This document shows, piece after piece, positions 949 to 4,137 of a stretch of 4,207 bases of DNA. A program made the position numbers and the translations under genes. Where the stretch lies: the IMG/VR virus record IMGVR_UViG_2711768074_000024, one strand, 5' to 3'. Numbering within the stretch: the stretch's first letter is position 1; each line of letters begins with the position of its first letter. A model generated the notes under the pieces. The model was given only the letters and a program-made list of their open reading frames with translations. It was not told the DNA's origin and made no database searches. The DNA is from a virus. Its lineage: Duplodnaviria; Heunggongvirae; Uroviricota; Caudoviricetes.

Positions 949-1143
949 TCATCCATCATCACTTTGGATTGATGTATATGCTCTCTTTTCTGACGTTAGT
1001 CTCCGACGGCAGGCTTCAATGACCCAGGCTGAGAAATTCCCAGACCCTTTTTGCTCAAGATCGATGTTAATTTGTTCAATCATTTGGTTAGGAAAGCGGA
1101 TGTTGCGGGTTGTTTTTCTGCGGGTTCTGTTCTTCGTTGACAT
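949..1143 (-). CDS. Small ribbon-helix-helix-like DNA-binding protein, YlcI/YnfO (DUF3950)-like, as found next to cos in lambdoid prophages
   Basis: 64-aa ORF MSTKNRTRRKTTRNIRFPNQMIEQINIDLEQKGSGNFSAWVIEACRRRL... has a basic N-terminal tail, then a beta-strand/helix/G-x-S-x-N loop/helix pattern typical of RHH (Arc/MetJ/CopG) folds. The position immediately upstream of cos and antisense to the late genes matches ylcI (DLP12) and ynfO (Qin) in E. coli K-12, as I recall them. ATG is the complement of 1141-1143; stop is the complement of 949-951. Confidence 0.6.
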   Translation of the reverse strand: MSTKNRTRRKTTRNIRFPNQMIEQINIDLEQKGSGNFSAWVIEACRRRLTSEKRAYTSIQSDDG

Positions 1144-1291
1144 GAGGTTGCCCCGTATTCAGTGTCGCTGATTTGTATTGTCTGAAGTTGTTTTTACGTT
1201 AAGTTGATGCAGATCAATTAATACGATACCTGCGTCATAATTAATTATTTGACGTGGTTTGATGGCGTAGATGCACGTTGTGACATGTAGA

Positions 1292-1342: not shown

Positions 1343-1354
1343 GGGCGGCGACCT
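1343..1354 (+). other. cosN: cosN: the 12-nt cohesive-end sequence GGGCGGCGACCT, with the top-strand nick predicted between 1342 and 1343 and the bottom-strand nick between 1354 and 1355
   Basis: Exact match to the canonical lambda 5' cohesive end. The downstream flank CGCGGGTTTTCGCTATTTATGAAAATTTTCCGG (1355-1387) matches the start of the lambda genome as recalled. cosN lies 195 nt upstream of the small terminase start, close to the lambda spacing. Confidence 0.85.
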
Positions 1355-1537: not shown

Positions 1538-2047
1538 GTGGCTACGCAGACTGAAGTTGCCAGGCATTTAAGTCTGACCGATCGCCAGCTTCGCAGATTG
1601 CAGAAATTGCCGGGTGCCCCGATATCGAATAAGCGAGGGCAACTGGATCTGGATGCCTGGCGCGATTTTTACATATCGTATCTGAGGAGAAGTAAAAACG
1701 ATGTGCCTGATGGCGATAGCGAAGACGACTATGAGGAGAAATTGCTTATTGCCAGATGGGAACTGACAGCAGAACAGGCTGTTACACAGCAGTTAAAAAA
1801 TGAGGTGTCAAAAGGAAAACTTATTGACACCGGGTTCTGTATTTTTGCCCTCAGTAAGCTGGCAATGGCGTTATCCAGTACGCTTGATTCCATCCCTTTA
1901 TCCATGCAGCGACAGTTTCCTGATTTAACACCGCGCCATCTTGACCATCTGAAAACCCTTATTGCGAAGGGGGCAAATCAGTGTGCGCGGGCAGGGGATA
2001 AATTACCGGATTTACTCGATGAATATATCAGAGCAACAACTGAATAA
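1538..2047 (+). CDS. nu1: Terminase small subunit (lambda Nu1 homolog) with a diverged N-terminal DNA-binding domain
   Basis: The C-terminal two-thirds (…TGFCIFALSKLAMALSSTLDSIPLSMQRQFPDLTPRHLDHLK…LPDLLDEYI…) aligns with the lambda Nu1 C-terminal region as recalled (…TAFCTFVLSRIAGEIASILDGLPLSVQRRFPELENRHVDFLK…). The N-terminal roughly 50 aa is HTH-like but differs from lambda. First gene after cos, overlapping the large-subunit start. GTG start at 1538 with AGGTGA/GAGG just upstream; in-frame stop at 1532-1534 rules out a longer N-terminus. Stop TAA at 2045-2047. Confidence 0.85.
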   Translation: MATQTEVARHLSLTDRQLRRLQKLPGAPISNKRGQLDLDAWRDFYISYLRRSKNDVPDGDSEDDYEEKLLIARWELTAEQAVTQQLKNEVSKGKLIDTGFCIFALSKLAMALSSTLDSIPLSMQRQFPDLTPRHLDHLKTLIAKGANQCARAGDKLPDLLDEYIRATTE

Positions 2048-3947
2048 TATGATGGCTGCCGTTTCGGTTGCGCTGCAGCCTCTGGTCAGGGTTGTACCAA
2101 TGACGGCAGTTGAATGGGCTGATCAAAATTATTATCTGCCTAAAGAATCTTCATATGGTGAGGGAGAATGGAAAACGCTGCCATTCCAGATCGCCATTAT
2201 GAACTGTATGGGTAACGACCAGGTTCGCACGGTTAACCTGATTAAATCTGCCCGTGTTGGCTATACAAAGATGTTGCTGGGGGTGGTCGGGTATTTTATT
2301 GAGCATAAATCCCGAAACAGTCTGCTTTTTCAGCCCACGGATTCTGCCGCTGAAGATTTTATGAAGTCTCACGTGGAGGCGACGATTCGGAACGTGCCAT
2401 GCCTGAAAGACCTTTCCCCATGGCTGGGTCGTAAACATCGTGACAATACTCTCACGCTGAAACGCTTTTCATCGGGCGTCGGTTTCTGGTGCCTGGGCGG
2501 CGCTGCCGCCAAAAACTACCGTGAAAAATCCGTGGACGTGGTCTGCTATGACGAACTTTCCTCGTTCGAGCCGGATGTCGAAAAAGAGGGCTCGCCAACC
2601 CTGCTGGGGGATAAGCGTATTGAGGGGTCGGTGTGGCCAAAATCCATTCGCGGCTCGACGCCTAAAATCAAAGGCACCTGCCAGATCGAAAAAGCCGCTA
2701 ACGAGTCGGCGCATTTTATGCGTTTTTATGTGCCCTGCCCGCACTGTGGGGAGGAGCAGTATCTGAAATTTGGCGATGAGTCCACGCCTTTTGGGCTTAA
2801 ATGGGAGAAGGACAGCCCTGAAAGTGTTTTCTACCTCTGTGAACATCATGGCTGCGTGATCCATCAGTCTGAGCTTGACCAGAGCAACGGGCGGTGGATC
2901 TGTGAAAACACGGGCATGTGGACCCGTGACGGTCTGACGTTTTTCAGCGCCCGGGGTGATGAAATTCCGCCGCCGCGCTCCATCATGTTCCATATCTGGA
3001 CGGCGTACAGTCCGTTCACCACCTGGGTACAGATTGTCTATGACTGGCTGGATGCACTGAAAGATCCCAACGGCCTGAAAACCTTTGTGAACACCACGCT
3101 GGGCGAGACCTGGGAAGAGGCCGTGGGCGAAAAACTCGATCACCAGGTACTGATGGATAAGGTGGTGCGTTACACGGCGGCGGTGCCTGCCCGGGTGGTT
3201 TATCTGACGGCGGGCATTGACTCGCAGCGAAACCGTTTTGAGATGTATGTCTGGGGATGGGCTCCGGGAGAGGAAGCCTTTCTGGTGGATAAAATCATCA
3301 TTATGGGGCGTCCTGATGAGGAAGAGACGCTGTTACGTGTGGATGCGGCGATCAACAAAAAATACCGCCATGCGGATGGCACCGAAATGACTATTTCCCG
3401 TGTCTGCTGGGACACCGGGGGGATCGATGGTGAAATTGTTTATCAGAGATCAAAAAAACACGGTGTTTTCCGGGTGCTGCCGGTAAAAGGCGCATCTGTC
3501 TATGGCAAGCCGGTGATCACCATGCCAAAAACCCGCAATCAGCGGGGCGTGTATCTGTGTGAAGTGGGAACGGATACCGCAAAAGAAATTCTCTATGCCC
3601 GTATGAAAGCCGATCCCACGCCTGCGGATGAAGCCACGTCGTATGCCATCCGTTTTCCTGATGATCCGGAGATTTTTTCGCAGACAGAGGCGCAGCAACT
3701 GGTGGCGGAAGAGCTGGTGGAGAAGTGGGAAAAAGGAAAGATGCGTCTGCTGTGGGATAACAAAAAGCGGCGTAACGAAGCGCTGGACTGCCTGGTGTAT
3801 GCCTACGCGGCATTACGTGTGTCCGTGCAACGCTGGCAGCTTGATCTGGCTGTACTGGCAAAATCCCGGGAAGAAGAGACGACCCGGCCAACCCTGAAAG
3901 AACTGGCAGCGAAGCTGTCCGGAGGAGTGAATGGTTACAGTCGCTGA
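2019..3947 (+). CDS. A: Terminase large subunit (lambda gpA homolog; packaging ATPase and cos endonuclease), 642 aa
   Basis: Collinear with lambda gpA as recalled, from the N-terminus (MNIS…TAVEWADQNYYLPKESSYGEGEWKTLPFQ…) to the C-terminus (…KKRRNEALDC…RWQLDL…). Conserved KSARVGYTK (K76-K84, nt 2244-2270) and CYDELSSF (D178/E179, nt 2550-2555), plus HFMRFYVPCPHCGEEQYLKFGD, VNTTLGETWEE and KGASVYGKP. Start ATG at 2019 chosen by homology (MNIS N-terminus) rather than the ORF-track ATG at 1962; it lies inside the 3' end of nu1. Stop TGA at 3945-3947. Confidence 0.95.
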   Translation: MNISEQQLNNMMAAVSVALQPLVRVVPMTAVEWADQNYYLPKESSYGEGEWKTLPFQIAIMNCMGNDQVRTVNLIKSARVGYTKMLLGVVGYFIEHKSRNSLLFQPTDSAAEDFMKSHVEATIRNVPCLKDLSPWLGRKHRDNTLTLKRFSSGVGFWCLGGAAAKNYREKSVDVVCYDELSSFEPDVEKEGSPTLLGDKRIEGSVWPKSIRGSTPKIKGTCQIEKAANESAHFMRFYVPCPHCGEEQYLKFGDESTPFGLKWEKDSPESVFYLCEHHGCVIHQSELDQSNGRWICENTGMWTRDGLTFFSARGDEIPPPRSIMFHIWTAYSPFTTWVQIVYDWLDALKDPNGLKTFVNTTLGETWEEAVGEKLDHQVLMDKVVRYTAAVPARVVYLTAGIDSQRNRFEMYVWGWAPGEEAFLVDKIIIMGRPDEEETLLRVDAAINKKYRHADGTEMTISRVCWDTGGIDGEIVYQRSKKHGVFRVLPVKGASVYGKPVITMPKTRNQRGVYLCEVGTDTAKEILYARMKADPTPADEATSYAIRFPDDPEIFSQTEAQQLVAEELVEKWEKGKMRLLWDNKKRRNEALDCLVYAYAALRVSVQRWQLDLAVLAKSREEETTRPTLKELAAKLSGGVNGYSR

Positions 3948-4137
3948 ACTGCAGGCGCTGCGTCAGGCGCGCCTTGATTTATTAACCGGTAAACGGGTGG
4001 TGTCTGTCCAGAAAGATGGTCGCAGAATTGAATATACGGCGGCTTCTCTGGATGAGCTTAACCGGGCGATCAATGATGCGGAGTCGGTACTGGGGACAAC
4101 CCGACGTCGCCGTCGTCCGCTGGGAGTGAGGTTATGA
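3931..4137 (+). CDS. W: Head completion / head-tail joining protein gpW homolog (68 aa)
   Basis: MVTVAELQALRQARLDLLTGKRVVSVQKDGRRIEYTAASLDEL…RRRRPLGVRL matches lambda gpW in length and sequence as recalled (…[27 protein letters not shown]…). GGAGGAG at 3921-3927 precedes ATG 3931. Overlaps the end of A by 17 nt. Confidence 0.9.
   Translation: MVTVAELQALRQARLDLLTGKRVVSVQKDGRRIEYTAASLDELNRAINDAESVLGTTRRRRRPLGVRL

Follow-up and report, generated by a model that had tools for sequence, protein, structure and literature searches.

The 64-aa protein encoded at positions 949-1143 (minus strand) of a 4,207-nt stretch of DNA from a member of the Caudoviricetes (IMG/VR virus record IMGVR_UViG_2711768074_000024; this whole stretch is hereafter called the window) belongs to the YlcI/YnfO (DUF3950) family, and we somewhat favor the interpretation that it is a dimeric ribbon-helix-helix (RHH) repressor with a basic arm, which has its own promoter and is active when late transcription is silent. 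A small transcriptional repressor appears more likely than a packaging-site factor because the relatives of this protein in phage satellites are encoded at the place expected for a repressor. For the window protein itself, we infer dimerization and DNA binding, repressor activity, and lysogen-specific expression. The new elements are the fold assignment and an operator-rich switch in the satellites, that is, outside of the window.

A conserved and already catalogued gene

The open reading frame (ORF) starts with ATG, has its stop codon at 949-951, and encodes the product MSTKNRTRRKTTRNIRFPNQMIEQINIDLEQKGSGNFSAWVIEACRRRLTSEKRAYTSIQSDDG, which includes the basic tail KNRTRRKTTRN (residues 4-14); on these points the sequence and the ORF list agree with the initial annotation of the window. 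The YlcI/YnfO-like membership proposed there was borne out by the profile searches, with 67.7 bits and E = 8e-19 for Pfam DUF3950 (PF13132; cut-off 25) and 34 bits for NCBIfam YlcI_YnfO_N (NF041551; cut-off 30). In addition, the protein matched PHROG 949, to which no function is assigned, with E = 1.6e-33. The core of the family, I-R-F ... N-F-S-A-W-V-x-E/D-A-C in proteins of 50-80 aa, is present in the window protein, and an alignment of 18-19 diverse members revealed that I15, R16, I25, F37, W40, V41, and C45 are invariant and F17 is nearly so. At the positions of K10 and D28 of the window protein, most family copies have T and A, respectively, and its tail is the lambda-type C-terminal one.

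Lambda-type copies were compared over the first 50 codons with copies from HNH-type phages, in which packaging involves an HNH endonuclease and a Terminase_2-type TerS. The synonymous differences (pS) were 0.5-0.75, compared with nonsynonymous differences (pN) of 0.05-0.09, and the resulting pN/pS of 0.07-0.16 indicates strong purifying selection. This substitution pattern excludes a non-functional ORF, and judged by its sequence evolution, ORF 949-1143 is a real gene under selection, far beyond what a chance ORF would display.

Together with the spacer that separates it from cos, the gene occurs 7,234 times in the complete E. coli genomes, 3,977 of 5,426 of which carry it; its RefSeq name there is ylcI/ynfO. 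The K-12 representatives are YlcI of the cryptic prophage DLP12 and YnfO of Qin, which belong to the same hidden Markov model (HMM) family as the window protein and are 85-95% identical to it over the first ~50 residues. Like the window gene, both lie on the opposite strand, with lysis/accessory genes on one side and nohD/nohA (Nu1-like) on the other, and nothing essential differs. Genes that are ~98% identical are annotated in phages Turner and 434, in the latter case as a hypothetical DUF3950 protein in the curated record. The lambda copy, at complement(48109..48303), encodes a protein that is 94% identical to the window protein, and no feature is annotated at this position in NC_001416 and J02459; newer lambda-like records annotate the lambda-type ORF as hypothetical. 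Altogether, the family is narrow and essentially limited to Enterobacterales: when 1.84 billion representative proteins were searched exhaustively, only 132 clusters emerged, many of which are error-laden reads of lambda control DNA.

A side observation concerns this control DNA. Of the 80 hits obtained in species-representative genomes, about 35 represent lambda DNA that turned up in unrelated taxa (Streptomyces, Cohnella, Flavobacterium, Pedobacter, and metagenome-assembled genomes), in contigs of ~3.5 kb or ~48 kb, and many error-laden ~3.5-kb ENA contigs also carry the YlcI/YnfO protein. The lambda DNA in these unrelated assemblies looks like contaminating sequencing-control DNA.

The initial annotation had described the family as one without an established function, and indeed none is assigned in the searchable literature. 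YnfO was placed among the uncharacterized y-genes in 2024, and the remaining mentions of ylcI/ynfO are incidental, in lists of single-nucleotide polymorphisms or of genes. Because the gene is already catalogued, the finding is the correct description of a known uncharacterized gene.

Predicted ribbon-helix-helix fold

The AlphaFold2 (AF2) model of the window protein, built from an 18-sequence alignment (mean pLDDT 68.5), consists of an extended N-terminus and two helices, a monomer topology that resembles an RHH subunit without its partner. The basic N-terminal arm (residues 2-13, STKNRTRRKTTR; 1105-1140, minus strand, as for all parts of the gene) is modeled as coil with pLDDT of 55-69 and is built from an internal 13-nt direct repeat with copies at 1104-1116 and 1119-1131. 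The arm leads into the predicted DNA-reading beta-strand RNIRFP (residues 13-18; 1090-1107), which was delineated from family alignments and hhalign; in the monomer model, this segment is extended, not helical. Within T12-R13-N14-I15-R16-F17, the hydrophobic residues I15 and F17 are conserved, and N14 and R16 are polar. Helix A (residues 19-32; 1048-1089, from AF2) is followed by the turn G33-S-G-N-F-S38 and by helix B (residues 37-59; 967-1035, from AF2 and DSSP), which holds the family signature NFSAWVIEAC. The features of RHH proteins that are present thus comprise the strand-helix-helix topology with matching helix geometry and a G-x-(S/T/N)-type turn capping helix B.

Profile comparisons pointed, tentatively, in the same direction. 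When a family profile of 53 sequences was aligned by hhalign to 11 RHH sequences, the probability was 45% with P = 2e-4 and the alignment was in register, compared with P = 0.62 for a helix-turn-helix (HTH) control. In this register, NIRFP is placed on NLRWP of Arc and NFRMP of Mnt, and the G33 turn on G30 of Arc. In single-sequence hhalign comparisons, RHH proteins scored above 8 controls (Mann-Whitney p = 0.013). A Foldseek search of the PDB produced a list dominated by RHH proteins, and because every E-value was above 0.6, this result is taken qualitatively only. Taken together, the model and the alignments support the RHH-type architecture that had been predicted at the outset, and we consider the RHH fold very probable, that is, well supported but not proven.

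The small phage-encoded repressors Arc and Mnt of P22, which belong to the Arc/MetJ/CopG RHH superfamily, resemble the window protein in several respects: they are of similar size, carry a basic N-terminal arm, share the strand motif N-phi-R-phi-P, and have a 14-residue helix A and a turn that contains glycine and leads to a serine cap. However, BLAST, HMM-to-sequence, and Pfam searches found no similarity between them and the window protein (BLASTP against Arc gave no alignment), and helix B of the window protein is longer and includes the family-specific NFSAWVxEAC. The genomic settings differ as well, given that the P22 genes border the ant promoter of immI, whereas the window gene lies at the late/packaging junction.

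Family members in phage satellites and their candidate operators

Most of the sequence-diverse members of the family are found outside of phages, in satellites, in regions resembling integrative and conjugative elements (ICEs), and as chromosomal orphans. Among the genuine loci from species-representative genomes, about 22 are small islands with an integrase that share the layout of Gram-negative phage-inducible chromosomal islands (PICIs), with the gene order integrase, AlpA, often AntA, the reverse YlcI/YnfO gene, an Icd-like gene, small ORFs, and primase, and sometimes with a capsid gene and terS at the end. In more than 20 satellites from ~10 genera, the YlcI/YnfO homologue is always a lone gene divergent from the Icd-like/primase operon. 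The prototype PICI of E. coli CFT073, EcCICFT073, also carries a homologue (C_RS30120, 67 bits on NF041551; region 12243-13053 of the locus), and the reverse YlcI/YnfO gene is missing from the original annotation of these islands. Altogether, the Icd-like/YlcI pair is present in 1,350 of the 5,426 E. coli genomes.

In many satellites, the intergenic region of ~200 bp between the two transcription units contains 12-bp dyads of the form GTG-N6-CAC at the fixed positions -30, -76, and -99. Such dyads occur 0-6 times per 220 bp in this region, typically 3-4 times, compared with 0-0.19 per 220 bp locus-wide. Their placement with respect to the promoters is specific. The -30 dyad overlaps the end of the TATAGT -10 element of the YlcI/YnfO gene itself, often in the extended form TGTATAGT; the -76 dyad fills the spacer of the leftward promoter, because the abutting GTCAAG reads as a TTGACG -35 element on the opposite strand; and the -99 dyad overlaps the -10 element of this leftward, divergent promoter. 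The arms of the dyads are conserved between elements and the inner six bases vary, which, at the sequence level, is the pattern of element-specific operators. In EcCICFT073, the switch contains two copies of GGTGTGGCCCAC followed by GTCAAG, TGTATACT, and GTCCCCCAC. The subgroup of proteins with a KNIRFED strand is associated instead with the dyad GGTAC..GTACC or close variants (GGTACCTACC, GATGGTA..TACCATC), and such dyads are also present at copies whose flanking genes match no satellite reference protein.

The simplest reading of this organization is that the satellite YlcI/YnfO proteins are operator-binding repressors of both promoters, as predicted from the arrangement of the dyads. In their position, these genes are analogous to those of the master repressors Stl/Rpr in the Gram-positive PICIs (Staphylococcus aureus pathogenicity islands, SaPIs), which are likewise divergent from the replication operon and have operators at the two promoters; the proteins are not homologous, and Stl proteins are large HTH proteins. 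Published accounts describe these islands as unidirectional and name no repressor. The islands were described in 2018 as being transcribed unidirectionally, with AlpA as the activator and the global repressor "unclear" (PMC6092414); in a 2023 survey, all non-hypothetical genes of the PICI in question were unidirectional (PMC10111431); and in a 2026 survey, YlcI/YnfO appears only as a prophage-associated accessory protein (PMC13612085).

Three further observations on these loci are recorded here in their own right. A GC-rich hairpin, GACGCCTCGG...CCGGGGCGTC, is conserved in the leader of the Icd-like operon, just 5' of the ribosome-binding site (RBS), at about 4800-4900 of one satellite locus and at the corresponding place in three others; at the thresholds used, it had no match to C4/IsrK-type RNAs of Rfam, and an Rfam search that included these RNAs yielded no match in the EcCICFT073 switch. 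The Rfam int-alpA RNA (RF02996, 53.8 bits) was detected in a Morganella satellite, at 7641-7707 (minus strand) of the locus, between the integrase gene and a 316-aa ORF. Finally, in E. coli 90-3040 (NZ_CP027459, 3.712-3.727 Mb), a satellite of ~8 kb is located inside the terminase region of an HNH-type lambdoid prophage and is flanked on both sides by annotated terminase fragments, a helper-embedded arrangement of PICIs that has been described previously (PMC10111431).

The lambdoid phage locus and its relation to cos

The whole window spans the junction of the right and left ends of a lambda-like genome, and ORF 949-1143 is the sole recognizable gene on its minus strand. All other identifiable genes are on the plus strand, namely, a Rha-like gene (Rha/ORF11CD3 regulator, 144-761), Nu1 (1538-2047), terminase A (2019-3947), and W (3931-4137). 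Between the Rha-like gene and the convergent YlcI/YnfO gene lies a 3' flank (760-948) that is conserved even in HNH-type phages, despite the differing C-termini of the proteins, and contains an inverted repeat (787-796/842-851) with a 10-bp stem and a 45-nt loop; the folding of the repeat and the 3' flank was no better than that of shuffled sequences (z of -0.46 and -1.46). Neither the C4/IsrK-type immunity RNAs nor any other Rfam family matched near the gene in the window. On the other side of the gene, a weak Shine-Dalgarno motif, GGGG, was read from the sequence at 1151-1154 (minus strand), 8-11 nt 5' of the ATG; in phage 434 (record OL657226), this element carries the RBS annotation.

The conserved slot in lambdoid prophages that the initial annotation had mentioned was confirmed. 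In 11 of 11 lambdoid examples, the gene lies in reverse orientation where the lysis/accessory genes meet the packaging genes, antisense to the late and packaging genes; the examples come from the window, lambda, 434, Turner, Chlobot, BP-4795, E. coli 90-3040, and five GTDB prophages. Several lambdoid phages have a two-gene unit in which a DUF1398 gene follows (ynfO-ydfO, or the homologue of lambdap78).

The distance to cos was likewise given correctly, as about 200 bp from cosN: the 12-nt cohesive end, GGGCGGCGACCT, is at 1343-1354 (plus strand) and the ATG is at 1143, so the distance from the ATG to the nick is 200 bp. Both this end and cosQ (GGGTCCT, 1313-1319) are identical to those of lambda. 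The intervening spacer of 199 bp (1144-1342), which is the presumed promoter site, is nearly invariant among lambda-cos phages when 11 copies from phages and prophages are aligned, also in those with a different cosB and Nu1, and because of this near-invariance it gives no footprint. The spacer contains three palindromes of different sequence, at 1204-1217, 1237-1248, and 1291-1307. The last of these, the perfect palindrome ATGATAAT-T-ATTATCAT, is beside cosQ and is overlapped by a promoter-like site at 1280-1307 on the plus strand (GTGACA-16-TATCAT, 10 of 12 matches) that points into cos and Nu1. Matches to the CII-site consensus that are annotated in phage 434 (window 1178-1191, plus strand) were treated as chance because their orientation is wrong for the YlcI/YnfO gene.

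The cosB part of the cos region is distinct from that of lambda. This cosB-like region (1383-1498) harbors four copies of CGGACATG, in direct orientation at 1453, 1470, and 1483 and inverted at 1392. The N-terminus of Nu1 is outside of the Pfam Nu1 match, which covers residues 49-150 only. These differences suggest that the window has a different Nu1/cosB specificity on a shared cosQ-cosN.

The proximity to cos raises the question whether the protein acts in packaging, by binding the spacer next to cosQ/cosN, for example at the 1291-1307 palindrome, and modulating terminase or silencing it in the prophage, so that the chromosomal cos would be spared. We consider such a role unlikely, although the 200-bp distance, the near-invariance of the spacer on a background of differing cosB and Nu1, the promoter-like site aimed across the palindrome into cos and Nu1, and two satellite proteins described below that fuse DUF3950 to the N-terminal HTH of a small terminase all speak for it. 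Against it, cosmid packaging needs only small cos fragments. In lambda, the promoter-like site is weaker, given that its -10 element reads TATCAC and lacks the final T, and in a lambdoid prophage of CFT073 with lambda-like terminase genes, the slot contains no annotated YlcI/YnfO gene.

HNH-type phages such as BP-4795 and the E. coli 90-3040 prophage keep the slot, but here the start codon is ~41 bp from a divergent HNH gene, which separates the YlcI/YnfO gene from the terS-proximal intergenic region. Their upstream DNA bears no relation to that of the lambda-cos phages. Because the slot is kept with an HNH gene in between and unrelated upstream DNA, the linkage to cos is, as far as can be read from these genomes, a property of one phage lineage and not of the YlcI/YnfO family. 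The satellite and orphan relatives, too, have no lambda-type cosN nearby; a travelling module of cos and the gene was rejected, given that lambda-type cosN beside satellite copies was represented by chance matches inside coding regions only. Thus, the suggestion of the initial annotation that the protein is a regulator acting at or near cos is supported neither by gene order nor by operator content, the lambda-type and HNH-type upstream regions having no common operator motif.

Helpers, satellites, and fusions with the small terminase

The presence of one NCBIfam family in both lambdoid helpers and PICIs, EcCICFT073 included, is compatible with another explanation, in which the phage protein and the satellite switch protein are paralogues, and the former occupies satellite operators or forms mixed dimers with the latter and so couples satellite induction to the state of the helper. 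Lambda can mobilize EcCICFT073 (PMC6092414), the phage and satellite copies are both head-on inside a long activator-dependent transcription unit, and the genome counts given above (3,977 and 1,350 of 5,426) imply that the phage module and the satellite pair are often in one cell. Such cross-talk nevertheless seems improbable. The predicted DNA-reading residues differ, being T-R-N-I-R-F in the phage protein compared with K-G-I-R-F or K-A-R-V-P in the satellites, and the examined region of the CFT073 lambdoid prophage, which may be the natural helper of EcCICFT073, has the slot without an annotated copy.

Two satellite proteins, P0245 (E. coli; 6001-6363 of its locus) and P0179 (metagenome; 4714-5103 of its locus), combine DUF3950 with the N-terminal ~53 residues of a small terminase of the Terminase_2 type. 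This fused HTH shares 66% identity with the N-terminus of BP-4795 TerS and 53% with that of the satellite's own TerS. RefSeq reads this DUF3950::TerS-HTH fusion as two pseudogene fragments; the conservation of the architecture across sequences that are only 44% identical argues, at the sequence level, that the fusion is real. At the P0179 locus, the fusion occupies the repressor slot, and the dyad array is present. These fusions are the single piece of evidence tying the family to packaging-site recognition.

A more tentative scheme brings these observations together. Possibly, the YlcI/YnfO proteins are the unrecognized operator-binding repressors of Enterobacterales satellites (PICIs, capsid-forming PICIs (cf-PICIs), helper-embedded PICIs, and EcCICFT073), and the lambdoid copy is their helper-side paralogue. 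Such a paralogue would protect the prophage's packaging operon or communicate with satellites resident in the cell, and the DUF3950::TerS-HTH fusions would link the satellite switch to the packaging-site recognition of the helper.

Orphan copies and a possible role in the host

Intact orphan copies are found between housekeeping or virulence genes. In Pantoea, the orphan lies between ABC transporter and binding-protein genes, in Tatumella between TonB-receptor and citrate-transporter genes, and in Rouxiella between cytochrome bd-II and NlpA. Salmonella arizonae and diarizonae have an intact copy (7001-7171 of the locus) between sopB (IpgD family) and pipD (Peptidase_C69), inside Salmonella pathogenicity island 5 (SPI-5). 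Other copies are in an ICE-like region of Brenneria and in a Mu-like region of Klebsiella.

These orphans, as well as the retention of the gene in the cryptic prophages DLP12 and Qin, speak for a regulator of lysogenic conversion or an antitoxin-like orphan whose targets would be host genes or a partner encoded elsewhere. We assign a low probability to this explanation. In the window, no co-oriented or toxin-like partner follows the gene, the next gene being the convergent Rha-like gene, and DUF1398 is the only recurrent downstream gene in other lambdoid phages; by its context, the window gene is not an antitoxin. Furthermore, no host phenotype has been reported.

Discussion

The RHH repressor that we propose for the window gene would work as an Arc/CopG-like dimer whose two-stranded beta-sheet, formed by residues ~12-17 (T-R-N-I-R-F), enters the major groove of the DNA, with the basic N-terminal arm adding backbone contacts. 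Its job would be sequence-specific transcriptional repression, including that of its own promoter. Because the gene is always reverse-oriented at the lysis/accessory-packaging junction, its own promoter would be active when late transcription is off, that is, in a lysogen or in a cryptic prophage; during lytic growth, the head-on, Q-dependent late transcription would shut the gene down.

Several results weigh against this proposal. On the side of the fold, the confidence of the model is moderate, and modeling a monomer does not allow the beta-strand to form; none of the Pfam RHH families was matched by the 18 members, even at E<=10; and phmmer and profile searches of PDB sequences gave chance hits only (uL16 and an Argonaute). 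On the side of regulation, the DNA upstream of the gene in the window has no operator-like repeat array, the three spacer palindromes being unrelated, and a comparison of k-mers and dyads upstream of lambda-type and HNH-type copies revealed no convincing common motif, despite identical predicted DNA-reading strands. A consensus scan of the window detected plus-strand promoter candidates only, so the minus-strand promoter that the initial annotation had envisaged in 1144-1290 was not detectable by consensus. As for the satellites, the co-occurrence of the gene and the dyads could result from shared ancestry of the switch, and another protein could bind the dyads.

With respect to expression, the K-12 ylcI gene is transcribed, and a convergent overlap of the ybcW and ylcI transcripts was present in at least 50% of the RNA-seq samples analyzed (PMC12288877). 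In addition, ynfO-ydfO is given as an operon (PMC12218254). The transcription of ylcI in a cryptic prophage fits the proposed repressor role. It also lends plausibility to the earlier idea of a moron expressed independently of late transcription, even though the consensus scan recognized no promoter/terminator pair of the moron type at the window gene; specifically, no canonical terminator for the gene was found, including in the 760-948 flank. The lambda morons bor and lom are comparable in being non-essential late-region genes that can be expressed outside of late transcription, and bor and lambdap78 are on the same strand as the YlcI/YnfO gene in lambda. However, bor and lom encode envelope proteins, whereas the product of the window gene is a predicted DNA-binding protein.

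Near-identical copies annotated as ylcI/ynfO are present in about three quarters of the complete E. coli genomes, and lambda itself has one, so the value of the proposal would lie in assigning both a fold and a role to a family that is very common. If the window protein and its relatives are indeed RHH repressors, the number of lambda regulators would be that of the textbook map plus one, and the YlcI/YnfO family would supply the missing repressor of the Gram-negative PICI switch, a question that has been open since the 2018 description of these islands.

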